Assembly (NCBI GenBank): GCA_018817165.1
Contig: JAHITY010000128.1
Coordinates: 5,161-69,160 of the forward strand
Origin: Candidatus Omnitrophota bacterium
GTDB lineage: Bacteria; Omnitrophota; Gorgyraeia; B26-G9
DNA: 64,000 nt
Direction: 5' to 3'
Shown: positions 1 through 51,066 of the stretch, piece by piece
Layout of the letters: every line of letters starts with the position of its first letter
Position numbering within the stretch: the stretch's first letter is position 1
Program-made: the position numbers and the translations under genes
Notes under the pieces: generated by a model
Database searches by the model: none
Told to the model about the DNA's origin: nothing
Seen by the model: the letters and a program-made list of their open reading frames with translations, nothing else

Positions 1-26
1 AGAGTGGTAACGAAATTAAATTGTAT

Positions 27-81
27 GACCGAAATAACCCTGAACCGAATGAGCGAAGCGAATTCTGGTTCCGGGGTAAAA
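27..81 (+). promoter_or_regulatory. Copy 1 of a duplicated ~55-nt motif (GAAATAACCCTGAACCGAA..TTCTGGTTCCGGGGTAAA) upstream of the sigma-factor gene. It may be an ECF-type autoregulated promoter (GAACC -35-like, TCTGG 16 nt downstream)
   Basis: About 85% identical to 221..277. It contains GAACC and, 16 nt downstream, TCTGGTT, resembling ECF -35/-10 spacing. The window edge prevents seeing the upstream context. Confidence 0.3.
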
Positions 82-220
82 CAAATAACAATACAATTTA
101 GGAAATAATTTACGTTGGCGTAAATTAGGCGATGCAGCCATTTACAATGCAGAGTTATGCATGTGAATGGCTTTTTTATTTGAGTACATAATTTACAGAG
201 CGAAGAGAAGTAAATGATAA

Positions 221-277
221 GTGCGAAAATAACCTTGAACCGAACGATCAAAGCGAGTTCTGGTTCCGGGGTAAAGG
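221..277 (+). promoter_or_regulatory. Copy 2 of the duplicated ~55-nt motif, lying just upstream of the favoured ATG at 286
   Basis: Direct repeat of 27..81. It is followed by AAAGGGGA (SD-like) and ATG 286. Confidence 0.3.
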
Positions 278-285
278 GGAAAAAT

Positions 286-816
286 ATGGAAATGACATTT
301 GAAGCATTGGTACAAAAAATAAATCCAAAGATCAAGGCAATTGCCAATAGGCTTGATGGTAAGTATACATCATTTTCTGATGATGATCTGTATCAAGAGT
401 CTTTGCTGCGGCTTTGGCAGAAGTTTAATGAAAGCAAGCTTGAGGATAAGACGGAAAGCTATATTGTTCAGGGTTGTTCTTTTGATATGAGGAATTATAT
501 CCGTACGCATTTTAAAGGTGTAGATCGCCGCTCAGTCAGCGCATATACCCCGATTAATGAGCAAGGTAATCTGCTGATTGATATTCTTCCTGAGAAGGAA
601 GCGGATAATCGGGAAGAGGTTTATGATACAGCAATGACTCTCGAAGATATCAGTCGAAAGCTGAGCGACAGAGAAAAGATTGTTTTGGAGAAGTCTTCAG
701 CAGGTTTAACTACCCGAGAGATTGGTGAGTATATTGGGACATCACATGTAATGGTAGTTAAAATAAAGAAGAAAATCCGCGATAAATGTCTGAAATTAGG
801 AGTAAAAAACAAGTAA
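286..816 (+). CDS. RNA polymerase sigma factor, sigma-70 family, ECF-like (regions 2 and 4 only)
   Basis: Region-2-like DDDLYQESLLRLWQKF and a region-4 HTH LTTREIGEYIGTSHVMVVKIKKKIRDK. The ORF track begins at 214, but the first 24 codons overlap repeat copy 2. ATG 286 has SD AAAGGGGA 6 nt upstream. Confidence 0.6.
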   Translation: MEMTFEALVQKINPKIKAIANRLDGKYTSFSDDDLYQESLLRLWQKFNESKLEDKTESYIVQGCSFDMRNYIRTHFKGVDRRSVSAYTPINEQGNLLIDILPEKEADNREEVYDTAMTLEDISRKLSDREKIVLEKSSAGLTTREIGEYIGTSHVMVVKIKKKIRDKCLKLGVKNK

Positions 817-972
817 CGGTTACCAAAATAACATTTTGATTACTTGTGTTACCATAAGAAGTATCAGATGAGTATATTTACCGAACAATGGTAAACTTAA
901 TTCATCAAAATCAGCAAAGAGTTAATTGTTAAGCTGAGATAGTAAAACACACATTGTTGTGTGACAAACAAA

Positions 973-1064
973 GGCGTTCTTAATTATATTAAGGAACGTT
1001 TTTTTATTTAAAGACTATGGCGTCTTTTCCCTCAGAGCTATTGAGAGAACAGACGCTTTTTTTA
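973..1064 (+). terminator. Two tandem intrinsic terminator-like hairpins after the sigma gene
   Basis: GGCGTTCTTAA..TTAAGGAACG followed by a T7 run, then GGCGTCT..AGACGC followed by a T7 run. Confidence 0.5.
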
Positions 1065-1090
1065 TTTTAAAGCTCTTTGATAATTTAAAA

Positions 1091-1174
1091 AATAATAATG
1101 ATTCCGAAAGTGCCTGCTTGGCCGCAGTCATTTCGGACTTAATTCTCCCGCCGAACTGCGGCGGGATCATTTAG
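1091..1174 (+). promoter_or_regulatory. N-leader repeat unit, modules A+B, immediately upstream of the P-II-like gene
   Basis: AATAATAATGATTCC header. Hairpin A is TCCGAAAGTGCCTGC-TTGGCC-GCAGTCATTTCGGA (1103..1137). Hairpin B is CCCGCCG-AACT(G)-CGGCGGG (1147..1165). Then ATCATTTAGGGAGG SD and ATG 1183. Confidence 0.6.
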
Positions 1175-1182
1175 GGAGGTGA

Positions 1183-1506
1183 ATGGTGAAAAAGATAGAA
1201 TGTATTATCCGGCAGGAAAAACTAAAAGAGTTAAGTGGCGCGCTTCGTTTGGCAGGAATAGCCGGAGCAACGGTTAGCGAGGTAAAAGGTTTTGGTAAGG
1301 AAGTGTCAAGGCCAGATAACTTTTTATTTTTACCAAAAACAAAAATCGAACTTTATATCACCGATGATCTTGTTGAAGATGTTGTGGCAACGATTATCAG
1401 TTGTTGTAAAGATGAATCCCTGGGAAGCGGTAAAATTGCTATTCTTCCCCTTGATGATTGTATTAGAGTAAGAACAGGAGAACGTGGAGATAAGGCTATT
1501 GTTTAA
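1183..1506 (+). CDS. P-II family-like small nitrogen regulatory protein (short T-loop variant, 107 aa)
   Basis: C-terminal GKIAILPLDDCIRVRTGERGDKAIV parallels [25 protein letters not shown] of the two glnK copies. N-terminal beta-alpha-beta VKKIECIIRQEKL...VSEVKGFGKE. Confidence 0.55.
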   Translation: MVKKIECIIRQEKLKELSGALRLAGIAGATVSEVKGFGKEVSRPDNFLFLPKTKIELYITDDLVEDVVATIISCCKDESLGSGKIAILPLDDCIRVRTGERGDKAIV

Positions 1507-1799
1507 ATAATAATGATTCCCGAATCAGCAGCTGGTCGCTGCTTCTCGGGCGAAATTCGAGCTGGCTGACTTGACGTCACTTGTGTTCCGTAAGTCAGGC
1601 GTAAATAATAATGATTCCGAAAGTGTCTGCTTGGCCGCAGCCATTTCGGACTAAATTCGAGCAGGCTGACTTGACGTCACTTGTGTTCCGTAAGTCAGGC
1701 ATAATAATAATGATTCCGAAAGTGTCTGCTTGGCCGCAGCCATTTCGGACTAAATTCGAGCAGGCTGACTTGACGTCACTTGTGTTCCGTAAGTCAGGC
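1506..1799 (+). repeat. Tandem array of 3 N-leader repeat units (A'+C, A+C, A+C) between the P-II-like stop codon and the amt1 SD
   Basis: Units are at 1506..1600, 1604..1700 and 1703..1799. Units 2 and 3 are identical, with a 99-nt period. Hairpin A' is TCCCGAATCAGCAGC-TGGTC-GCTGCTTCTCGGG. Hairpin C is GGCTGACTTGACG-TCACTTGTGTT-CCGTAAGTCAGGC. It is followed by TCTCATTTAAAGGAGG and ATG 1819. Confidence 0.7.
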
Positions 1800-1818
1800 T
1801 CTCATTTAAAGGAGGGGT

Positions 1819-3195
1819 GTGATGTTGAATACTTTTTGGAGAAAAACGCGATTTATATTAGGTGGGTTTTTAATGTTGTCTCTATTGTGGGCATTACCGG
1901 CATTTGCTGAAGGAGAGACAGCAGAGAGCAATGCAACGGCAATAAATACAGTTTGGACTTTGCTGGCAGCGTTCTTGGTATTTTTTATGCAGGCTGGGTT
2001 TGCTATGGTTGAGACCGGTTTTACCAGAGCGAAAAACTCATGCAATATTATGATGAAGAATTTAATGGATTTCAGTGTGGGGTCTATTGCTTATTGGCTG
2101 GTTGGTTTTGGGATTATGTTTGGCACAAGCGCAATGGGATTGTTTGGCACAGATGGTTTTTTCTTAAGCGCGGGAGATCCTTCAACTGGTGAAGGTTTAT
2201 GGAAGTTTGCTTATTGGATGTTTCAGGCAGTGTTTGCGGCAACAGCAGCTACTATAGTATCTGGGGCAATGGCTGAACGCACAAAATTTTCCGCATACCT
2301 TTTTTATAGCATTTTTATTACTGCTTTGATTTATCCGGTTGTTGGGCACTGGATATGGGGAGGCGGCTGGCTTGCCCAAAAAGGGATGATTGATTTTGCT
2401 GGTTCGACAGTTGTTCATTCGGTTGGTGGATGGGCTGCTCTTGCGGGTGCGATGCTACTTGGCCCAAGATTGGGTAAATATAATAAGGATGGTTCTTCCA
2501 AAGCAATTCCCGGACATAATATTCCTTTGGCAGCTTTAGGTGTATTTATTCTTTGGTTTGGCTGGTTTGGGTTTAATCCAGGTAGCACTACTGCAGGAAC
2601 AAATCTTAGTATTGCAACAATAGCAGTAACTACAAACTTGGCAGCAGCAGCTGGTTCGATAATCGCGATGTTTGTAACTTGGAAAAGATATGGAAAACCT
2701 GATTTATCAATGACTTTAAACGGAGCGCTAGCCGGATTGGTAGCAATCACTGCTCCTTGCGCAAGTGTTTCACCATTAAGCGCGATAATAATTGGAGCGA
2801 TTGGTGGTTTACTGGTTGTATTTAGTGTTGAATTTATTGATAAAGTTTTAAAGATAGATGATCCTGTAGGCGCGATATCAGTACATGGTGTTTGCGGCGC
2901 TTGGGGAACATTGAGTGTTGGTCTTTTTGCCCAAGCTGCGTATGGTGAATCAAGCGGGATGGGCGCGATCAATGGTTTGTTTTTCGGCGGCGGAACTGCT
3001 CAATTAATGACGCAGATTATTGGTATTGCCGCTGTATTTGCTTGGGTTTTTGTCGCGGCACTAATTGTGTTTTCTATAGCAAAAGCAATCATGGGTTTAC
3101 GGGTAACAGATGAAGAACAGCTAAAAGGTCTTGATATTGGCGAACATGGCATGGAAGCTTATGCTGGATTTCAGATCTTTTCAACAGAATCATAA
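1819..3195 (+). CDS. amtB: Ammonium transporter Amt (copy 1), with signal peptide
   Basis: 458 aa, polytopic. Amt signatures [20 protein letters not shown] and GFNPGS. About 60% identical to copy 2. Confidence 0.93.
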   Translation: MMLNTFWRKTRFILGGFLMLSLLWALPAFAEGETAESNATAINTVWTLLAAFLVFFMQAGFAMVETGFTRAKNSCNIMMKNLMDFSVGSIAYWLVGFGIMFGTSAMGLFGTDGFFLSAGDPSTGEGLWKFAYWMFQAVFAATAATIVSGAMAERTKFSAYLFYSIFITALIYPVVGHWIWGGGWLAQKGMIDFAGSTVVHSVGGWAALAGAMLLGPRLGKYNKDGSSKAIPGHNIPLAALGVFILWFGWFGFNPGSTTAGTNLSIATIAVTTNLAAAAGSIIAMFVTWKRYGKPDLSMTLNGALAGLVAITAPCASVSPLSAIIIGAIGGLLVVFSVEFIDKVLKIDDPVGAISVHGVCGAWGTLSVGLFAQAAYGESSGMGAINGLFFGGGTAQLMTQIIGIAAVFAWVFVAALIVFSIAKAIMGLRVTDEEQLKGLDIGEHGMEAYAGFQIFSTES

Positions 3196-3306
3196 AATAT
3201 AAAATTTGATTTAGCCCGTGCCTTTGTTTTAAATTACTAAAGGTGCGGGTAAAATCAAAACATTCCGCCATAAGGCGGCGGGATATTTAATGGGAGGGGA
3301 AATAAA

Positions 3307-3648
3307 ATGAAACTGATAATAGCAATGATTCAACCGCATAAATTACCGGATGTTAAAAAAGCGCTTTTTGAAGCAGATGTACACAAGATGACAGTAACCA
3401 ATGTTTTAGGTTGCGGGCAGCAAAAAGGTTTTACTGAAACATACCGCGGAGTTATTCATGAAGTTAATTTATTGAAAAAACTAAAACTTGAAATCGCGGT
3501 AAATGAGCAATATGTAAAAACTACAGTAGACGCGATTATTAAAGGCGCGCGGATCGGTAAAATCGGGGATGGTAAGATCTTTGTCCTGGATATGCCGGAA
3601 TGTATTCGGATTAGAACCGGAGAGACTGGTTCAAAAGCAATTGGCTGA
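3307..3648 (+). CDS. glnK: Nitrogen regulatory protein P-II (GlnK-type, copy 1)
   Basis: 113 aa. [54 protein letters not shown]. Located directly downstream of amt. Confidence 0.93.
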
Positions 3649-3683
3649 CTTGACGTCGCTAAAAAAGCTCCGTAAGTCAGGTG
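3643..3683 (+). promoter_or_regulatory. Solo module-C hairpin of the N-leader repeat, beginning inside the glnK1 stop codon
   Basis: GGCTGACTTGACG-TCGCTAAAAAAGCT-CCGTAAGTCAGG followed by TGCTCATTTAA. It has the same stem as the other C modules and a different loop. Confidence 0.5.
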
Positions 3684-3774
3684 CTCATTTAATTATTAAG
3701 TTACCGAAAACAAGTTTTTTTTACTTGTATATTTGTAAATAACTAACTGGTACATTGAAGTACCCACAAAAAAC

Positions 3775-3824
3775 AAAGACGTTTTGATCCTTTTTTAAAA
3801 AAGGGTTGAAACGTCTTTTTATTT
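3775..3824 (+). terminator. Intrinsic terminator after the amt1-glnK1 operon
   Basis: 10-bp stem AAAGACGTTT/AAACGTCTTT, with an inner CCTTTTTT/AAAAAAGG hairpin in the loop, followed by TTTTTATTT. Confidence 0.6.
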
Positions 3825-3834
3825 AGGTGATATA

Positions 3835-4014
3835 ATGGAAAATATAAATTTGATTCAAGCCCTAAAGCAAGTTAAAGAAGAACGGGGCTATACCTTGTAT
3901 GATTTATCTAAGAAATTGGATATACAGGTCTCTACGGTTTCTCGCTGGTTTAAAACAAATAGAATTAATCGGGTTTACGCGGAGTTAGTAAAAGAAAAAC
4001 TAAAACTTTTTTGA
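3835..4014 (+). CDS. Small HTH DNA-binding protein (59 aa, XRE-like). It is not in the ORF track, which has a 60-aa cutoff
   Basis: MENINLIQALKQVKEERGYTLYDLSKKLDIQVSTVSRWFKTNRINRVYAELVKEKLKLF. It has a helix-turn-helix (LYDLSKKLDIQVSTVSRW) and lies between the two amt-glnK modules. Confidence 0.45.
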   Translation: MENINLIQALKQVKEERGYTLYDLSKKLDIQVSTVSRWFKTNRINRVYAELVKEKLKLF

Positions 4015-4078
4015 TTTTTTTTAAATAATATTTCTCAGTTAATTAATCAGTTCCATAACCAAAGGAGGGAAGATTATA

Positions 4079-5419
4079 ATGGGCAAGTTTAGTAAAATTG
4101 TTGGTATTAGTATGGCAACGGTCTTAACAATTTTCATGATAAGTCCGTTCGCGTTTGCCGCAGATACCAGCATGGCAGAAGTAGTAAGAGGTTTGGATAC
4201 TGTCTGGGTTTTGATCGCGGCGTTTCTGGTTTTTTTTATGCAGGCTGGTTTTGGCATGGTAGAAGCGGGTTTTATCCGAGCGAAAAATACCTGTAATATT
4301 TTAACTAAAAATTTTCTTGATTTTTGCATGGCTTCAATTGGTTTTTTTGTTTTTGGTTATGCGATTATGTTTGGTACGGGTAATGGTTTTATGGGCATGC
4401 AGGGCTGGTGCTTATCTGGAGCGCAAAGCGGAGCAAATATTCCATTAGCTGCTTTTTGGCTGTTTCAGGCTGCTTTTTGCGGAGCGGCAGCAACAATTGT
4501 TGCCGGCGGCATGGCAGAGAGAATGAAGTTTGTGTCATATCTTGCTTATTCATTTATAATCTCGGCATTTATTTATCCTATAGTAGGGCATTGGGTATGG
4601 GGCGGAGGCTGGTTAAGCGGATTAGGCTTTGCTGATTTTGCTGGTTCAACTGTTGTTCATGCGGTGGGCGGTTTTGCCGCATTGATCGGAACAATAATTT
4701 TAAAACCAAGAGAAGGTAAATATAATAAAGATGGTTCGGCAAACGCGATTTCCGGGCATTCTATTCCTTTGGCTTCTTTGGGTGTATTTATTCTTTGGTT
4801 TGGCTGGTTTGGTTTTAATCCCGGTTCAACGCTGGGAGTGGGCAATGGAGATTTAATTGCTCGCGTTGCGATAAATACAAATTTAGCAGCAGCTGCCGGA
4901 GGGATTGTGGCAATGCTCACAGTTTGGAAAATGTTTGGTAAACCTGATTTATCAATGGCAATGAATGGGGCCTTAGCTGGTCTTGTGGCAATTACCGCTC
5001 CTTGTGCTTTTGTCGATTCTTGGGCAGCGATTGTGATTGGCGCGGTTGGCGGAGTATTGGTGGTATTGGCTGTAGTTTTACTGGATAAATTACATATTGA
5101 TGATCCTGTCGGCGCTTTTCCTGTTCATGGAGTAAATGGAGTTTGGGGTACACTATCAGTTGGAATTTTTGGTAAACAGGCTCTGGGTCTTGCGCATGAG
5201 GGATTAATTTATGGCGGTGGATTTACGCAGTTAGCAATTCAGCTTTTGGGGGTTGCTACTGTTGCTGTGTTTATTTTGATCACTATGGGAACTGTGTTTA
5301 AAATTCTTAACAGTACTATTGGTTTAAGAGTTTCTCGAGAAGAAGAATTAAGAGGGCTTGATATTTGCGAGCATGGTATGGAATCGTATGCTGGTTTTCA
5401 GATTTTTGTTACAGAATAA
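4079..5419 (+). CDS. amtB: Ammonium transporter Amt (copy 2)
   Basis: 446 aa paralog. [36 protein letters not shown] upstream. Confidence 0.93.
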
Positions 5420-5433
5420 AAGGGAGGGTTTAT

Positions 5434-5775
5434 ATGAAATTAATTATTGCGATGATTCAGCCGTATAAATTGCCGGATGTAAAGCAGGCGCTTTTTGAGG
5501 CAGGGGTGCATAAAATGACGGTAACCAATGCGCTGGGCTGCGGACAGCAAAAGGGTTTTACTGAGACATACCGCGGAGTTATTCATGAGGTGAATCTGCT
5601 TAAAAAAATTAAACTGGAAATCGCGGTTAATGCGGATTTTGTCCAGCCGACAATTGACGCGATTATTAAAGGAGCAAGAACCGGTAATATCGGAGATGGA
5701 AAGATTTTTGTCCTGGATATGCCGGAATGCATCCGTATTCGTACCGGAGAAAAGGGCAAAGAAGCTATTGGGTAA
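5434..5775 (+). CDS. glnK: Nitrogen regulatory protein P-II (GlnK-type, copy 2)
   Basis: 113 aa, about 85% identical to copy 1. The ORF track starts at 5365, but the homologous MKLIIAMIQ start at 5434 has SD AAGGGAGGG. Confidence 0.93.
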
Positions 5776-5872
5776 GAATTTTATTGACAAGTTACCAGAA
5801 AATTGATAAAGTTACTTTAATCATATAGGCACAAAGAAGTGCTTAAAAATGAGGCATAATGAAAAAGACAAT

Positions 5873-5912
5873 GGTGTTCTTTTGGTTGTATAAAAGAACG
5901 CCATTTTTATTT
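5873..5912 (+). terminator. Terminator-like hairpin between glnK2 and glnN
   Basis: GGTGTTCTTTT-GGTTGTAT-AAAAGAACGCC (11 bp with one G.U) followed by ATTTTTATTT. Confidence 0.4.
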
Positions 5913-5958
5913 ACAAATTAGATTTTAAATTATGAATTAAAACAATAAGGAGGAATTT

Positions 5959-8061
5959 ATGGCAAGTGTAACTAAAATTTTTGGGGAGCTGACTTTTAGT
6001 AAAAAAGTCATGGCGGAAAAGTTAAGCAAGGATGTGTATAGTAAATTACTGGCAACTATCGAAGGCGGACAAGCGCTGGATGAGTCAATTGCCGGTGATG
6101 TGGCTCATGCAATGAAGGAATGGGCAATTGAAAACGGAGCAACCCATTTCACTCATTGGTTTCAACCGCAACGCGGCGGCACTGCGGAAAAACATGATGC
6201 TTTTCTGAGCTATGGTAAGAATGGCGAAATAGTTGACAGATTATCAGCCAGACAGCTTATTCAATCAGAGCCTGATGCATCATCATTTCCATCAGGGGGA
6301 ATGCGTTCTACTTTTGAAGCACGTGGATATACTGCTTGGGACCCGACATCTCCCGCGTTTTTATTAGAAGCGGGTGATACCAAGACTTTGGTAATCCCAT
6401 CTGTTTTCTTATCCTGGACAGGTGATGTTTTAGATCTAAAGACTCCGATGCTGCGTTCAATGAAAGCAGTTAGCAAAGCAGCGCTTAGATTGCAGGGACT
6501 GTTGGGTAATAAAAAAGTTAAATCAATTAAAGTTTTTGGCGGACCAGAACAAGAATATTTTCTTTTCTCAAAGCAACTTTTTGAAACGCGTCCGGACTTA
6601 ATTATTTGCGGACGGACTTTATTCGGTGCTCAGCCGGCAAAAGGCCAGCAAATGGAAGATCATTATTTTGGCGCGATCAAATCAAAAGTAATTGAGTTTA
6701 TGGAAGATTTTGATAATGAATTGTACCGCAGAGGAATTCCCGCGAAAACTCGTCATAATGAAGTTTCGCCAAACCAGTTTGAAATCGCTCCTTTATATGA
6801 AGAGGTAAATTTGGCAATAGATCATAATCTGCAATTAATGGATATTATCCAAAAAGTCGCTGATCGTTATGATTTGGTTGCTGTGCTTCATGAAAAACCG
6901 CTGGGCGGCGTAAATGGTTCGGGAAAACATTTTAATATGTCGATCGGTGATAATACGGGCGCTAATTATTTTGAGCCATCAAGCAGTCCTCAGAATAATC
7001 TGATTTTTCTCCTCTCTTTAGGCGCGCTTATGCTGGGTGTTGACAAATTTGGCGGATTATTAAGGGGTGTGGTTGCTGATGCGGGAAATGATCATCGCTT
7101 GGGTGCTAATGAAGCTCCGCCGGCAATTATCTCAGTTTATCTGGGTGAATATCTTGATGCTATTCTTAATGAAATCGAGGGAATAGGCGCGGTTACTGAT
7201 AAAAAACTCTCGGAAATTTATTTAGGGCTGCAAGATTTGCCAAAAGTAGCAAAAGATACTTCTGATAGAAATAGAACATCACCATTGGCTTTTACTGGCA
7301 ATAAATTTGAGTTCAGAGCAGTGGGTTCATCACAGAACTGTGCTGAGGCAGCTACTTTATTAAATATGCTTATGGCTTATGGATATAATGAAATTGCTGA
7401 TGGAATTGAGAAAAGTACAGCAAAATCAGATGCTAAAGCAATTGAAGTATTAGAAAAAGTATTGAAAAAAACAAAACATGTGCGGTTTGAGGGAAATAAT
7501 TATTCCGAAAAATGGCATAAAGAAGCAGCCAAGCGCGGATTGCCAAATACAAAAAATACTCCTGAAGCTTTAGAACAGTTTTTACAAAAAGATGTAATTA
7601 AATTGTATGAAAGCATGGGTATTTTAACTGAAAAAGAAGTTCATTCAAAAATCGAAATTAAACTTGAAGCCTATAATAAAATTAAGGAAATCGAGTTTAA
7701 AACAGCAATGAATATGGCTAAAACATTGGTGATGCCGGCGATATTAAAGCAGATTGGATTACTTGCTGACGCGAATGCTGGAATAAAATCAGCTGGAATT
7801 AAAACAATAAGCAGCATTGCTTCAGATATAAAAGAAGCGAATAAAGTTTATGAGGCATTACAGGTTGGAATCAGTGGTTTGAATAAAGAATTAACAATGG
7901 CAGCAAAGGCTGATGATGAGTTGAAGAAATCAAAACTCATGGCTGGAAAATGTGTTGCTGCTTTAGATAAGCTAAGGGTTGCGGTAGATACAGCTGAAGA
8001 ATTAGTTGCTGATGAACTTTGGCCAATGGCAAAATATCAGGAACTATTGCTGGTTTTATAA
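5959..8061 (+). CDS. glnN: Glutamine synthetase type III (GlnN)
   Basis: 700 aa. N-terminal KEWAIENGATHFTHWFQP block characteristic of GSIII. Catalytic NGSGKHFNMS. The size matches GSIII rather than GSI. Confidence 0.88.
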   Translation: MASVTKIFGELTFSKKVMAEKLSKDVYSKLLATIEGGQALDESIAGDVAHAMKEWAIENGATHFTHWFQPQRGGTAEKHDAFLSYGKNGEIVDRLSARQLIQSEPDASSFPSGGMRSTFEARGYTAWDPTSPAFLLEAGDTKTLVIPSVFLSWTGDVLDLKTPMLRSMKAVSKAALRLQGLLGNKKVKSIKVFGGPEQEYFLFSKQLFETRPDLIICGRTLFGAQPAKGQQMEDHYFGAIKSKVIEFMEDFDNELYRRGIPAKTRHNEVSPNQFEIAPLYEEVNLAIDHNLQLMDIIQKVADRYDLVAVLHEKPLGGVNGSGKHFNMSIGDNTGANYFEPSSSPQNNLIFLLSLGALMLGVDKFGGLLRGVVADAGNDHRLGANEAPPAIISVYLGEYLDAILNEIEGIGAVTDKKLSEIYLGLQDLPKVAKDTSDRNRTSPLAFTGNKFEFRAVGSSQNCAEAATLLNMLMAYGYNEIADGIEKSTAKSDAKAIEVLEKVLKKTKHVRFEGNNYSEKWHKEAAKRGLPNTKNTPEALEQFLQKDVIKLYESMGILTEKEVHSKIEIKLEAYNKIKEIEFKTAMNMAKTLVMPAILKQIGLLADANAGIKSAGIKTISSIASDIKEANKVYEALQVGISGLNKELTMAAKADDELKKSKLMAGKCVAALDKLRVAVDTAEELVADELWPMAKYQELLLVL

Positions 8062-8098
8062 GGATTAGTTTAGTTGATAATTAACAATTAGGATCTAA

Positions 8099-8135
8099 AG
8101 AGCGATACTTTAAAAAAGTATCGCTCTTATGTCCA
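8099..8135 (+). terminator. Intrinsic terminator after glnN
   Basis: AGAGCGATACT-TTAAAAAA-GTATCGCTCT, an 11-bp perfect stem followed by TAT. Confidence 0.5.
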
Positions 8136-8156
8136 TTAAAAAGTAACAAAATATTC

Positions 8157-8240
8157 ATAATAATGACTCCAAAAGTGCCTGCTTGGCCGCAGTCATTTTG
8201 GACTAAATCCCTGCCAAAAAGCGGCGGGATCATTTAAAGG
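8157..8240 (+). promoter_or_regulatory. N-leader repeat unit, modules A+B, upstream of the amidotransferase gene
   Basis: ATAATAATGACTCC, hairpin A TCCAAAAGTGCCTGC-TTGGCC-GCAGTCATTTTGGA (8168..8202), hairpin B CCTGCC-AAAAAGC-GGCGGG, then ATCATTTAAAGG and ATG 8251. Confidence 0.6.
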
Positions 8241-8250
8241 ACATTTAAAA

Positions 8251-8979
8251 ATGATATATTTTCTTGAACACGAACCAATCGAAGGCCCGGGGATGTTAAA
8301 GCCTTTGTTTGAAAATAATGGTTTTCTTACTTCGGTAATCAAGCTTTATGATAATCAGGATTTACCGCAGGACTTTGATTCAATAGAAGCAATTGTAAGT
8401 CTTGGCGGCCCAATGAATGTTTATCAAGAAGAGGTTTATCCTTTTTTAAAAAAAGAAGATGAATTCCTTAAAAAAATTATTAAGCTAGATATCCCTTGTT
8501 TGGGTATATGTCTTGGCTCGCAATTAATCGCTAAAGCGGAAAAAGCGCAAGTTAAGAAAGCGGAAAAAGAAGAAATCGGCTGGTTTAAAGTCTCGTTAAC
8601 TGAACATGGCAAGAAAGATGATTTATTCCATCTGGTAAATGAGCAACTTGAAGTTTTTCAATGGCATTCAGATACTTTTAGCGTTCCGGTTGGCGGGGTT
8701 TTATTGGCGCAGGGTTCTGTTTGCCGCAATCAGGCGTTTAGAATAGGTAATAATGTTTATGGATTGCAGTTTCATCTGGAAGTTACGGATAAAGAAGTTT
8801 TTGATTGGACTGGCAAATATTTTAATATTGCGGATTCAGAAAAACAGGAATACGCGAAAGATATGCTGTCAAAATATAGCGAAATAAAAAAAGATTTTGA
8901 GCTGCAAATGGATGTTATTGGCGCGAATTTTCTTAAAATTATTGAGAAGAGAAAGATCGCTGTGGCACAGGAAGTTTAA
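8251..8979 (+). CDS. Class I glutamine amidotransferase-like protein (stand-alone GATase1 domain)
   Basis: Catalytic-Cys motif GICLGSQLIA, and a downstream His in QFHLEV. 242 aa. Confidence 0.7.
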   Translation: MIYFLEHEPIEGPGMLKPLFENNGFLTSVIKLYDNQDLPQDFDSIEAIVSLGGPMNVYQEEVYPFLKKEDEFLKKIIKLDIPCLGICLGSQLIAKAEKAQVKKAEKEEIGWFKVSLTEHGKKDDLFHLVNEQLEVFQWHSDTFSVPVGGVLLAQGSVCRNQAFRIGNNVYGLQFHLEVTDKEVFDWTGKYFNIADSEKQEYAKDMLSKYSEIKKDFELQMDVIGANFLKIIEKRKIAVAQEV

Positions 8980-9016
8980 AAAATTTTAAATATCAGTGCC
9001 CAAAAATTAGGCAAAT

Positions 9017-9342
9017 TAAAATAATGATTCCCGAATCAGCAGCTAGTCGCTGCTTCTCGGGCTAAATTTCCCGCCAGAAAACAGCGGGATAAACGAGCAG
9101 GCTGACTTGACGTCGCATAGAACGTTCCGTAAGTCAGGCTAAATAATAATGATTCCAAAATATCTGCTTGGCCGCAGCTATTTCGGACTAAATTCGAGCA
9201 GGCTGACTTGACGTCGCATAGAACGTTCCGTAAGTCAGGCTAAATAATAATGATTCCGAAAGTATCTGCTTGGCCGCAGCTATTTCGGACTAAATTCGAG
9301 CAGGCTGACTTGACGTCGCATAGAACGTTCCGTAAGTCAGGC
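9017..9342 (+). repeat. Tandem array of 3 N-leader repeat units (A'+B+C, A+C, A+C) upstream of the Fis-like gene and gltBD
   Basis: Units are at 9017..9139, 9142..9240 and 9243..9342, with a period of about 101 nt. The C loop here is TCGCATAGAACGTT. It ends TCTCATTTAAGGGGAT followed by ATG 9359. Confidence 0.7.
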
Positions 9343-9358
9343 TCTCATTTAAGGGGAT

Positions 9359-9622
9359 ATGAGCGCATACACAGATAAAATTAGTATTCTCCAAGAACAA
9401 ATAAAGGATGTTGAGACTTTTTTTCTAAAAAAAGATACAAAACATTTATATAAACACATATTGGAAATAGTCGAAAAACCTTTGATTGAAATGGTTTTAA
9501 AATCAACAAAAGGCAATCAGAAAAAAGCGGCGGTGCTTTTGGGGATTAACCGAAATACATTGTTTGTTAAAATTAAAAAACTTAAGATAAACGCTAAAGA
9601 ATTCAAAGATGCTTCAGATTGA
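9359..9622 (+). CDS. Fis-family (HTH_8) DNA-binding mini-protein
   Basis: 87 aa. C-terminal [24 protein letters not shown] is a Fis/NtrC-type helix-turn-helix. It lies 37 nt upstream of gltB on the same strand. Confidence 0.6.
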
Positions 9623-9658
9623 AAAGCAAAATTCTGAAAAAGAAAGGAATTATTCCGA

Positions 9659-12600
9659 ATGAAGTATAAACATTTACCTGCCAAGCAGGGGCTTTATGAC
9701 CCTAGCTTTGAAAAAGATGCTTGCGGTGTTGGGTTTGTTTGCAATATCAAGGGAGTTAAATCCAATCAGATAATTAAAGATGGATTGACTGTTTTAAGGC
9801 GTATGGCGCATCGTGGTGCCGTGGGCGCTGATCCTAATACCGGGGACGGTGCGGGTCTGCTGATTCAGATGCCGCATAAGTTTTTGGAGAAGGCGGCTGC
9901 TCAGGCAAAGATTAAATTACCGGAATTCGGGTTTTATGGCAGTGGTCTGGTGTTTTTGCCAACAGTTAAAAAAGAACGGGATATCTGCAAGCTTAATTTT
10001 GAAAAAATTATTGAGCAGCAGGGACAGATACTGCTTGGCTGGCGGAAAGTCCCGGTTGATAATTCCTGTATTGGCCCAGTGGCACAGGAGTCTGCTCCGA
10101 TCATCGAGCAGGTATTTATTGCGCGAAATGCCCAAATCCAAGATCCTATGGATTTTGAAAGAAAACTTTATGTTATTAGAAAACTTATTGAAAATTTTGT
10201 CCGCGGGGCTGATCTAAAACAAAAATCTTATTTCTATGTTTCTAATTTATCGTATAAAGTCCTTTCCTATAAAGGATTGCTAATGCCGCATCAGGTTGAT
10301 AAATTCTTTTTGGATTTAAAAGATAAAAGCATCGAAAGTGCTTTATGTTTAGTTCATTCTCGTTATAGTACTAATACTTTTCCTACTTGGGATTTGGCAC
10401 AGCCGTTTCGTTTTTTAGCGCATAATGGAGAAATAAATACGGTTAGAGGTAATATAAACTGGATGCAGGCACGGGAAGGTTTGTTGAAAAGTGAATTATT
10501 TGGGAAAAATATTGAGCAAATGAAACCAATTATTGTTCCGGGCGGAAGTGATTCCGCGACTTTGGATAATGCTTTGGAATTATTACTGCTTTCCGGCAGG
10601 TCTTTGCCGCATGTTATGATGATGCTTGTCCCCAGCGCATGGGAAAACAGTACTTTGATGGATAAAGAACTGCGCGATTTTTATAAATATCATGCTTGTT
10701 TTATGGAACCTTGGGATGGCCCGGCGGCAATTGCTGTGACCGATGGGATTAGAATCAGTGCCGCGCTTGATCGCAACGGTTTACGTCCGGCGCGTTATAT
10801 AGTAACAAAAAACGATTTTATTGTTATGGCCTCTGAAGTTGGGGTTTTGGACATTGCTCCTAAGGATATTGCTTATTCCGGAAGACTTGAGCCGGGAAAA
10901 ATGTTTTTTATTGATACTGAGCAAGGAAGAATTATTAATGACGAAGAATTGAAAAAAAATATTGCTATTTCTCAGCCTTATGGGAAATGGATAGATAGTA
11001 ATTTAGTGGAATTAGCCAGTTTAAAACCAGCTAAGGCTGATAAAAGTAAACAGGAAGATATTCTTACTTGTTTGAAAAGTTTTGGCTACAGTCGAGAAGA
11101 TTTAAAGATGATCATAAAGCCCATGGCTCAAACCGGTCAAGAGCCGACTCATTCTATGGGTAATGATGCTCCGCATGCTATTTTATCGAAAAAGCCGCAA
11201 GTGCTTTATTCCTATTTTAAACAGCTTTTTGCTCAGGTTACCAATCCGGCAGTTGATCCGATCAGGGAAGAAATTGTTATGAGCTGGCAAAGTTTTGTTG
11301 GCGCGCAAAAAAATATTCTAGAGGAAACTCCCGAACATTGCCATACTCTTCGGGTAAAAAACCCCCTATTATCAGACGCTGATCTGGCTAAGATAAAAAA
11401 TGTAAATGCTAAAGGGTTTAAAGCTAAAACAATCTCTCTTTTATTTAATCTGAATGAAAAGAAAAGTTTTATGCAGGCGATTAAAGGGATTTGCGATCAG
11501 GCAGTATTGGCTATTCAGCAGGGGTATACGTTTATTATTTTAAGTGATCGCGGTACTGATAAAGATCAGGCGGCAATTCCCGCGCTTTTAGCAACCGGAG
11601 CGGTGCATCATCATTTAGTCAGAAAAGCCCTGCGTACCCAGATTGGAATCGTAGTGGAGAGTGCAGAGCCAAGAGAGGTGCATCATTTTGCCCTTTTGTT
11701 CGGATATGGTGCTGATTGTATTAATCCTTATTTAATATTTAGGACATTAGATTATTTAATTAAAGAAAAAGAATTAGATATTAGTTTTGAGGAAGCAGCA
11801 AAAAATTATATTAATGCTGTAAAAAAAGGAATATTGAAAATAACTTCTAAAATGGGTATTTGTACTTTGCAAAGTTATAAAGGCGCCCAGATTTTTGAAG
11901 CTTTGGGATTGCATGATCAGGTAATTGAGCGCTGTTTTAAAGGAACTCCTTCGCGCATCGGAGGAGCTGATTTTGAAATTATCCGACAGGAAACTATTTT
12001 AAAACATAAACATGCTTATCCTGAGCGGGAAATCGGTGTCACTGATTTAGCTGTTGGTGGTGTATATCAATGGAAAAGAGATGGAGAAGCGCATCTTTGG
12101 AACCCTCAGAGTATTACTGCTTTGCAGGATGCGACCCGCACAGGCAGTTATGCTAAATATCAGGACTTTGCTAAACTAATAAATGATCAAGCGCAGCAGC
12201 CGATTACTTTGCGCAGTTTGCTTGAATTTAAAGCTAAAGAATCTATTCCGGTTGAGCAGGTTGAGCCTGTGAAAAAAATTGTTAAACGGTTTGTTACCGG
12301 AGCAATGAGTTTTGGTTCAATCAGTAAAGAAATACATGAGTCTTTGGCAATTGTGATGAATCGCTTGGGTGGAATGTCCAATACCGGAGAAGGCGGAGAA
12401 GATCCAGCTCGTTTTAACCGTTTGCCAAATGGTGATTTAAAACGCAGCGCGATCAAGCAGGTTGCGTCCGGACGTTTCGGAGTTACCACAAATTATTTGG
12501 TTAATGCTGATGAATTGCAGATTAAAGTTGCCCAAGGCGCAAAGCCGGGTGAGGGCGGTCAGTTGCCGGGACATAAGGTTAGTTCGATTATTGCTAAGAC

Positions 12601-37064: not shown

Positions 37065-37202
37065 TTGGTAGTCAAAAAGAAAAAAGTAGCAAAGAAGGCA
37101 GTGGCTAAGAAAGTGGTAAAAAAAGTGGTAAAAAAAGCAGTGGCTAAGAAAGTAGTAAAAAAAGTAGCAAAGAAAGTAGTAGCTAAGAAAAAGAAAAAAT
37201 AA
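37065..37202 (+). CDS. Lysine-rich micro-protein (45 aa, KKxV/A repeats), histone-H1-tail-like. TTG start, not in the ORF track
   Basis: SD AAAGGGGGTG 7 nt upstream of TTG. The open frame is (M)VVKKKKVAKKAVAKKVVKKVVKKAVAKKVVKKVAKKVVAKKKKK*. The other strand is closed. Confidence 0.45.
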   Translation: MVVKKKKVAKKAVAKKVVKKVVKKAVAKKVVKKVAKKVVAKKKKK

Positions 37203-50687: not shown

Positions 50688-50766
50688 CGGGGCATGGCTC
50701 AGCTTGGCTTAGAGCGCCTGGTTTGGGACCAGGATGTCGGTGGTTCGAATCCACCTGCCCCGACCA
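50688..50766 (+). tRNA. tRNA-Pro (anticodon TGG), CCA encoded
   Basis: Acceptor CGGGGCA/TGCCCCG, anticodon stem CCTGG/CCAGG with loop TTTGGGA, T-arm GGTGG-TTCGAAT-CCACC, long D-loop. Confidence 0.85.
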
Positions 50767-50851
50767 AAAAATAGTTGTAGAGTTTGGGGAGCAGGACATT
50801 AAAGTATTTTGCTTAGAGCTTATAACTTTGATGTCCTTAGTTTCTAAAAAT

Positions 50852-50928
<77 letters not shown>

Positions 50929-50988
50929 ATTTAACAGGCTTAACCATCCTTCTCTATAATTTATTTTTGGATTAAAATTAATTTATGT

Positions 50989-51066
50989 GGTGGATGTAGC
51001 TCAGTTGGTTAGAGCTCATGATTGTGGTTCATGAGGCCGGGGGTTCGAGTCCCCTCATCCACCCCA
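50989..51066 (+). tRNA. tRNA-His (anticodon GTG) with genomically encoded G-1 and C73, CCA encoded
   Basis: G-1 + GTGGATG/CATCCAC + C + CCA. Anticodon stem CATGA/TCATG with loop TTGTGGT. T-arm GGGGG-TTCGAGT-CCCCT. Confidence 0.85.

Follow-up and report, generated by a model that had tools for sequence, protein, structure and literature searches.

The gene glnK1 in the DNA analyzed here ends inside a hairpin, copies of which, termed module C, stand in front of other genes, and the question raised by this locus is what such a hairpin does on a stop codon. A first-pass annotation had proposed that its stem, rather than its loop, is the selected feature, and that this copy, lying ahead of a strong terminator, might act as a 3′-UTR or processing element. 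The hairpin is probably a displaced, 5′-truncated copy of C, left as a by-product of recombination and duplication turnover, with at most a secondary role. The window, which is the whole stretch of 64,000 nt that was analyzed, belongs to a Candidatus Omnitrophota genome; its GlnK1 matches a P-II protein of a Candidatus Omnitrophica MAG at 100% identity, the closest GlnK1 relatives are all from Omnitrophota, and a look-up of the window's GlnK1 itself gave no entry. The first 16 kb form a nitrogen-assimilation cluster, consisting, in order, of a weak sigma-70/LuxR-like gene, a P-II-like gene, amt1-glnK1, a gene for a 59-aa HTH protein with homologues in many Omnitrophota, amt2-glnK2, and the genes for a type III glutamine synthetase and a class I amidotransferase, followed by a Fis-type HTH ORF, gltB, and gltD. 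Farther along the window, A-rich tandem repeats with periods of 12 to 39 nt (AAAGTAGCAAAGAAAG...; 37076-37193) probably represent a Lys/Ala/Val-rich coding repeat, and a cluster of three tRNA genes lies on the + strand at 50688-51063. The features that bear on the hairpin are collected in Table 1.

Table 1. Positions in the window of the glnK1-stop hairpin, its surroundings and the related leaders.
Feature	Position	Strand	Basis
glnK1 (P-II, 113 aa)	3307..3648	+	stop TGA 3646-3648; ORF list
C hairpin core	3645..3680	+	exact pattern match; fold; covariance model match 3631-3693, 61 bits
44-nt insertion GACTTGACG...GCTCATTT	3647..3690	+	alignments A2 and A4 with L001, L003, L179: clean gap, conserved flanks
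3′ strand remnant of P1 basal helix, with trailer (GTGC-TC-ATTTAA)	3681..3692	+	family alignment A1
Promoter-like box GTTACC-N14-TTTACTTGTAT	3700..3730	+	alignments A2 and A4; invariant in 5 lineages
Two hexaloop hairpins of ANTAR-target type	3749..3785	+	sequence; motif as in PMC3369931
Intrinsic terminator, 20-bp stem and T run	3775..3826 (scan: 3775-3818)	+	terminator scan; fold
59-aa HTH gene, first of the HTH-amt2-glnK2 unit	3835..4014	+	Pfam HTH_23, HTH_3
P-II-like gene leader: B hairpin, GC-rich hairpin and AUCAUUUA-SD	1091..1182	+	sequence, B pattern, fold
Three tandem units (A/B hairpin and C), amt1 leader	1506..1810	+	99 nt x 2.5 repeat; model matches 1551, 1651, 1750
Three tandem units before the Fis-type HTH ORF and gltB	9017..9353	+	102 nt x 2.5 repeat; model matches 9096, 9188, 9290

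The sequence of the hairpin region (3643-3683) is GGCTGACTTGACGTCGCTAAAAAAGCTCCGTAAGTCAGGTG, and the last two codons of glnK1, GGC-TGA (3643-3648), provide the first stem bases. An exact match to the C pattern bore out the original observation that the hairpin begins inside the TGA and carries a third apical variant. The core consists of P2 (CUGACUU/AAGUCAG), a bulged G, P3 (ACG/CGU), a UC/UC internal loop, and an apical GCU-AAAAA-AGC, and the core stem, UC/UC loop, and variable apical stem-loop of the complete element are all present. The pattern CTGACTTGACG-N6-24-CCGTAAGTCAG was found seven times in the window (starting at 1566, 1666, 1765, 3645, 9102, 9203, and 9305), always on the + strand, and not once in 100 shuffles. 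The 22 stem bases of the glnK1-stop hairpin are identical to those of the six other copies. Three apical variants occur in the window (TCACTTGTGTT, TCGCTAAAAAAGCT, and TCGCATAGAACGTT), just as they were first read; what was called the loop has a substructure, however, comprising the conserved UC/UC internal loop and a small variable apical stem (AC/GU, GCU/AGC, or GC/GU) with a loop of its own. The stem and trailer are kept, as was also claimed, and the trailer, (G)CTCATTTAA, stands 3′ of this copy and of the last copy in each of two tandem arrays. The isolated hairpin folds with -14.6 kcal/mol (z = -3.45), and the family covariance model scores it at 61 bits (E = 3e-18), compared with 77-83 bits for complete C copies in the window and 46-55 bits for internal tandem copies. 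Run SRR6514274, assembled independently in Logan (L185; the L numbers designate loci compared with the window), gives the identical sequence, and the hairpin is therefore not an assembly artifact.

Module C is the ribosome-site-proximal hairpin of a previously undescribed two-hairpin RNA unit (B plus C, ~105 nt). The unit runs from a header through hairpin B, the strand UAAAUUC-GNNC, an (N)GG bulge, and CUGACUU-G-ACG-UC to a variable apical hairpin, and returns through UC-CGU-AAGUCAG to GNNC-UC-AUUUA; its core was defined as the stem CUGACUU-N-AYG / CRU-AAGUCAG around the UC/UC internal loop. Rfam 15 gave no match at the gathering threshold, whether for the window or for 8 related loci, nor did any match at E <= 10 in window positions 1-10000 overlap a module, and full-text searches of the literature gave no description of the element. 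In all genuine matches of the genome scan described below, C is the second hairpin. Hairpin B usually carries a U-N-G-G-N-C hexaloop closed by C-G. This hexaloop (alignment A3; e.g., window 1627-1640) is nearly invariant across the phylum and lies just past upstream stop codons; it presumably resembles the GGUC apical loops that are bound by SelB in bacterial SECIS elements.

The structure of the unit is strongly supported by compensatory base changes. Core-stem columns of alignment A1 are invariant or covarying, and the apical pairs covary across the family. For C, 94.6% of cells are paired, and double-sided changes occur in 101 cells, compared with 27.6 in shuffles; none of 500 shuffles reached the observed value, and slid controls all collapsed. 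Hairpin B shows double changes in 13 of its 14 pairs. The basal 4-bp helix takes the forms GCAC/GUGC, GCGC/GCGC, GAGC/GCUC, GUGC/GCAC, GCCC/GGGC, GUGU/ACAC, and ACAC/GUGU, P3 alternates between ACG/CGU and AUG/CAU, and diverged members (model R1) covary in lower P2 (CAAACUU/AAGUUUG, AUCACUU/AAGUGAU, and AUAACUU/AAGUUAU). The proposal that the stem, and not the apical sequence, is selected was thus upheld at the level of the family: among 59 members the apical part ranges from ~8 to 30 nt, the stem core is near-invariant, the basal helix covaries, and the changes are compensatory. Several readings of parts of the element were tried and rejected. A sigma-70 promoter with TTGACG as its -35 box is incompatible with an apical insert of 8 to 30 nt and with covarying stems; a K-turn would require tandem G-A pairs, whereas the 3-nt bulge is followed by Watson-Crick pairs; and the trailer GCUCAUUUAA, which resembles the NusB/NusE boxA GCUCUUUAA, has one A too many, and covariation marks its 5′ part as a strand of a helix.

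The distribution of the family was mapped by scanning one genome per species with a degenerate C pattern. The scan returned 53 stretches, 51 of them genuine and 2 chance matches; the genuine ones come from ~20 Omnitrophota MAGs, some of which had been labelled Planctomycetales by their depositors. A scan of viral contigs gave one match, by chance, and a metagenome scan for glnK-fused copies gave no real copy in the fetched loci, its pattern being too degenerate and the matches listed being due to chance. All complete copies lie upstream of the next gene and on the same strand. When the scan loci were combined with loci fetched earlier through GlnK homologues, 47 of the 59 non-tandem copies were found to stand 10-12 nt or 17-27 nt before a same-strand start codon. 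In one class, termed direct (18 of the 59), the last A of AUUUA is the A of the start codon; in the other, termed SD (29 of the 59), an SD follows directly 3′ of the trailer and the start codon lies 17-27 nt past the stem. The sequence AGGUG or AGGGG occurs in the 3′ stem strand, 7 nt before AUG, in 16/18 direct units and 4/29 SD units (Fisher p = 4e-7, with phylogeny ignored), and SD-like words of the AAGGA type occur in the header of 13/18 and 3/29 units, respectively (p = 2e-5, phylogeny again ignored). Since the ribosome site lies within the basal helix of C or next to it, the folding of C should, on the simplest reading, gate translation initiation.

The genes downstream of the element are heterogeneous and include housekeeping genes, nitrogen genes, and one tRNA. 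As judged by N-terminal sequence, they appear to be rpmE, rplI, rplU, an argF-like gene, ilvC, trpA, ispH, pheT, leuS, glmS, plsX (in two genomes), pfk, tpiA, mnmE, atpA, atpC, rdgB, rsmD, and coaX, along with amt, glnK, a porin-like gene, and gltB. One complete element (L043, 3832-3892) stops 1 nt short of where a mature tRNA-Ser begins (tRNA 3891/3892-3978), and the B-C element is therefore not restricted to translated genes. A nitrogen-specific riboswitch, for example one for glutamine, is excluded by the presence of rpmE, rplI, rplU, pheT, leuS, plsX, pfk, tpiA, atpA, trpA, ilvC, and tRNA-Ser among the downstream genes. In L005, a good sigma-70-type promoter stands ahead of the 5′ UTR that holds the element of the rpmE gene, and an element can also fill an entire inter-cistron spacer, with the upstream stop codon inside the header.

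Retention and turnover are both seen in the family. At the rpmF-plsX, pre-rsmD, and pre-rpmE sites the element is retained in different genomes, whereas the nitrogen clusters of close relatives carry no element (L179), a single one (L001, L003, and L004), or, in the window, a triple one; moreover, the copies within one genome share a common style of apical loop. Long-term retention is thus combined in this family with local turnover and, probably, gene conversion. The units within either of the two tandem arrays of the window are 96-98% identical, and relatives carry a single unit or no unit at these places. A full basal helix (P1) is confined to the final C of an array; in the amt1 array, the full P1 and trailer of the last C are followed by an SD. 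The arrays also create spurious ORFs, such as 1611-1910. The leader of the P-II-like gene and a similar leader at 8156-8250 both consist of hairpin B and a GC-rich hairpin, CCCGCC...GGCGGG, followed by AUCAUUUA and an SD; their basal layout is C-like (UAAUUCU-stem-AUCAUUUA), with a different upper stem.

Measured against this family, the glnK1-stop copy is incomplete. The 3′ basal strand, GNNC-UC-AUUUA, is present as GTGCTCATTTA (3681-3691), whereas its 5′ P1 partner UAAAUUCGCAC is missing: in place of the 5′ basal strand UAAAUUC-GNNC stands the glnK1 coding sequence TTCAAAAGCAAT. No match to hairpin B was found near 3645, where the upstream sequence is coding, and neither a start codon nor an SD was found in the family register after the stem; no ORF starts there, and the next gene begins 155 nt past the stem, behind its own promoter-like box and attenuator. 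Without a B hairpin, a 5′ basal strand, and a ribosome site, this copy cannot gate translation.

Comparison with related lineages revealed how the hairpin is placed in the gene. Alignment with L001, L003, and L179 shows it as a 44-nt insertion between GGCT and AA(A)TATTAAGTTACC, with microhomology to the element at both junctions (GGCT on the left, AA on the right). The ancestral stop of glnK1 was TAA, and the insertion made it TGA. No hairpin was found at the glnK1 3′ site in the syntenic loci L001/L002, L003, and L179/L180, an outcome that the first-pass annotation had named in advance as refuting its proposal, and the notion of a general glnK 3′ feature is thus not supported; pairwise glnK1 identities among the compared lineages are all 79-86%. 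In L186-L188 (three samples, with an HTH protein 92% identical), this site is occupied by a homologous copy that shares the apical GCUAAAAAAG. The L186 copy has 3 substitutions in the 5′ arm, all of which keep pairing as G-U, a 24-nt loop insertion, and a changed basal remnant; its model score is 31.9 bits, and shuffled sequences are predicted to fold at least as well. Between the window and L186, 41/45 positions of the copy are identical (91%), compared with 23/41 four-fold degenerate glnK1 sites (56%; binomial P about 3e-7). With respect to glnK1, C stands before the gene in L001, L003, and L004, after it in the window and L186, and at neither end in L179; lineages with a leader C have no 3′ copy, and 2/3 lineages without a leader C have one. 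The glnK1 leader of the window, GGGATA followed by TTTAATGGGAGG, resembles the L001 leader minus its C hairpin. In a Logan contig of run ERR15964295, the 59-aa HTH gene is identical and the glnK-to-HTH gap is 154 nt, compared with 186 nt in the window and an expected 142 nt without the insertion; this contig may represent a strain with a shortened copy.

A candidate source for the insertion was found in the amt2-glnK2 spacer of L186, where an intact element precedes glnK2 (L186:2303-2367), with the apical GCUAAAAAAAGC and the GUGC strand as in the window copy. Its C hairpin, CTGACTTGACGTC-GCTAAAAAAAGC-TCCGTAAGTCAG-GTGC-TCATTTAA, equals the glnK1-stop copy of the window except for one extra A. 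Given this near-identity, and given that the amt2-glnK2 spacer of the window is only ~11 nt long, the likely source of the glnK1-stop copy is an amt2-glnK2 element that was later lost in the window lineage.

The strong terminator and the 59-aa HTH gene that had been noted downstream of the hairpin are indeed there, but the terminator is not dedicated to glnK1, having ANTAR-type hairpins and a promoter-like box of its own. It is the only strong + strand site in the terminator scan and is conserved in L001, L003, L179, and L186. Antiterminator targets of ANTAR proteins consist of a pair of short hairpins, each with a hexaloop that has A at position 1 and G at position 4 (A1/G4), of which the second overlaps a terminator, and mostly precede nitrogen genes, including those for P-II and amt (PMC3369931). 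The corresponding hairpins here are GGUAC-AUUGAA-GUACC (3749-3764) and AAAAC-AAAGAC-GUUUU (3770-3785); both loops carry the A1 and G4 of the motif, and the 3′ arm of the second hairpin is shared with the 5′ arm of the terminator. The promoter-like box sits downstream of the glnK1-stop hairpin and upstream of this attenuator. Because the terminator lies downstream of that box and is overlapped by the ANTAR-type hairpins, it is assigned to the HTH-amt2-glnK2 operon as an ANTAR-type attenuator and not as a dedicated glnK1 terminator, although it may also stop read-through from glnK1. As an attenuator of HTH-amt2-glnK2, it provides no evidence for the C hairpin as a 3′-end element.

Further observations concern the same regulatory features. 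The GTTACC-N14-TTTACTTGTAT box also occurs at 819-850 and is found in L001, L003, L004, L179, and L186; it does not fit the consensus in a sigma-70 scan and may be an alternative-sigma promoter, for instance one of the product of the weak sigma-70/LuxR-like gene (214-816). A second ANTAR-type attenuator (948-1007) precedes the P-II-like gene, with hexaloops AUUGUU and AAAGGC and with its second hairpin overlapping a terminator. In another Omnitrophota MAG, a gene for a GAF-ANTAR protein (L181 1628-2332) lies between glnA and a porin-like/amt/glnK/gltB cluster, which fits ANTAR control of nitrogen genes in Omnitrophota. The ANTAR-type attenuator of HTH-amt2-glnK2 is the likelier candidate for the nitrogen-responsive switch of the cluster.

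Several functions could be envisaged for a hairpin at this position. It might be a functional 3′-UTR element, in which the core hairpin is selected at the glnK1 stop and tunes the amt1-glnK1 message by holding back 3′ exonucleases, by serving as a processing site, or by offering one more place to bind for the factor that recognizes C cores. The conservation above neutral between two lineages, with substitutions that keep the pairing as wobbles, is consistent with such a role, as are the identity of the core stem bases to the six other copies, the complementary occurrence of leader C and 3′ C around glnK1 among lineages, and the concentration of seven cores within 10 kb of nitrogen genes, with none in the other 54 kb. 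This reading is nevertheless rather doubtful, since three related lineages in which the gene order is the same lack the hairpin, the L186 copy is decaying (24-nt insertion, fold no better than shuffles), the copy is truncated and lacks parts that are found in nearly all complete units, and no terminator-like T run follows it. Gene conversion from conserved, intact paralogues would give high identity without any function at the glnK1 stop; the above-neutral conservation would thus be explained by gene conversion as well as by selection at the site. That the hairpin terminates the amt1-glnK1 transcript intrinsically is very improbable. A stable hairpin (-14.6 kcal/mol) does lie right after the stop and is followed by the A/U-rich CAUUUAAUUAUU, but it was not called by the terminator scan, there is no run with at least 5 T in the 8 bases past the stem, and orthologues without the hairpin share the downstream terminator at 3775; moreover, the same hairpin occurs at dozens of loci in 5′ UTRs before translated genes, which is incompatible with efficient termination.

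A hairpin that starts at a UGA also invites comparison with recoding signals, either for selenocysteine insertion or for stop readthrough. UGA-C is a weak stop context, the hairpin is immediate, and an in-frame UAA follows 9 codons on. GlnK1 is full length (113 aa), however, and ends like its homologues (...AIG), which have TAA there; the stem begins inside the UGA and not downstream of it, the apical loop is AAAAA rather than a GGUC-type SelB loop, and the 9-codon extension is not conserved in L186, all of which makes recoding scarcely credible. The chance of a fortuitous inverted repeat or an assembly artifact, for which nothing speaks except that the source is a metagenome-assembled genome, is likewise close to nil, in view of the shuffles (0/100), the model E-value of 3e-18, the identical independent Logan assembly, and the homologous copy in three further samples.

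A displaced, truncated copy of C would account for these observations as follows. Complete C runs from UAAAUUC-GNNC to GNNC-UC-AUUUA, in 5′ UTRs and inter-cistron spacers across Omnitrophota, with a basal helix that either ends at the SD or contains the SD-like AGGUG and the A of AUG. The invariant core (P2/P3, two UC/UC loops, and the GG bulge) would form a recognition surface for a shared trans-acting partner. The same recombination and duplication turnover could have produced both the threefold tandem arrays and the glnK1-stop copy, which gene conversion may keep similar to its paralogues. Any role of this copy would then be secondary, namely that of a stable hairpin or of a site for a factor where the coding region of glnK1 ends.

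The glnK1-stop hairpin alone is of minor importance: it shows that the modules can change place, multiply, and be left behind as fragments, and that an inserted repeat gave glnK1 of the window lineage its new stop codon. The main result is the family itself, a ~105-nt structured RNA with strong covariation that is not in Rfam and keeps a fixed register with the ribosome sites of many genes. Should a factor or ligand act on it, the B-C unit would represent a new global layer of post-transcriptional control in the uncultured phylum Omnitrophota and a well-defined target for experiments.

Among known systems, the B-C unit shares features with several classes and differs from each in others. BOX elements of Streptococcus pneumoniae, Correia elements of Neisseria, and REP/REPIN sequences are multi-copy, intergenic, hairpin-forming modular repeats that are confined to a species or genus. 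Like these, B-C modules duplicate in tandem, are gained and lost among close relatives, and leave partial copies; unlike these, they are phylum-wide with compensatory changes, and co-oriented and in fixed register with the next gene. No terminal inverted repeats or target duplications were seen at B-C copies. The intercistronic RNase III sites of phage T7 are irregular hairpins of ~25 bp with internal loops, and the C hairpin is likewise irregular, contains internal loops, and lies between cistrons or in 5′ UTRs near ribosome sites, but the sequence conservation of P2/P3 is far above what RNase III needs. In contrast to ANTAR targets, C has a 5-nt A loop at glnK1, a variable apical loop, no partner hairpin, and no paired terminator.

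The closest parallels are hairpins that sequester ribosome-binding sites, such as operators, RNA thermometers, and riboswitch platforms. As in these, an SD-like AGGUG or AGGGG and the A of AUG lie within the basal helix of C (16/18 direct units), and in the SD class the helix ends right at the SD. The differences are that one core precedes dozens of unrelated genes and one tRNA, and that the copy at the glnK1 stop has no ribosome site. A riboswitch would share with the B-C unit a conserved core and a putative RBS-sequestering helix, but the downstream genes of the unit are heterogeneous. One possibility, put forward tentatively, is that the unit is a phylum-wide, trans-controlled translational gate, in the form of a riboswitch that reads a global signal or of an operator bound by a conserved RNA-binding protein, in which the core (P2/P3, the two tandem U-C mismatched loops, the GG bulge, and the UNGGNC hexaloop) would sense the partner, the basal helix would hide the SD and AUG of dozens of genes, and tandem arrays and stray cores would serve as extra tuning sites. 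By analogy, the B-C unit would work most like an RBS-sequestering operator, and it evolves partly like a modular intergenic repeat.
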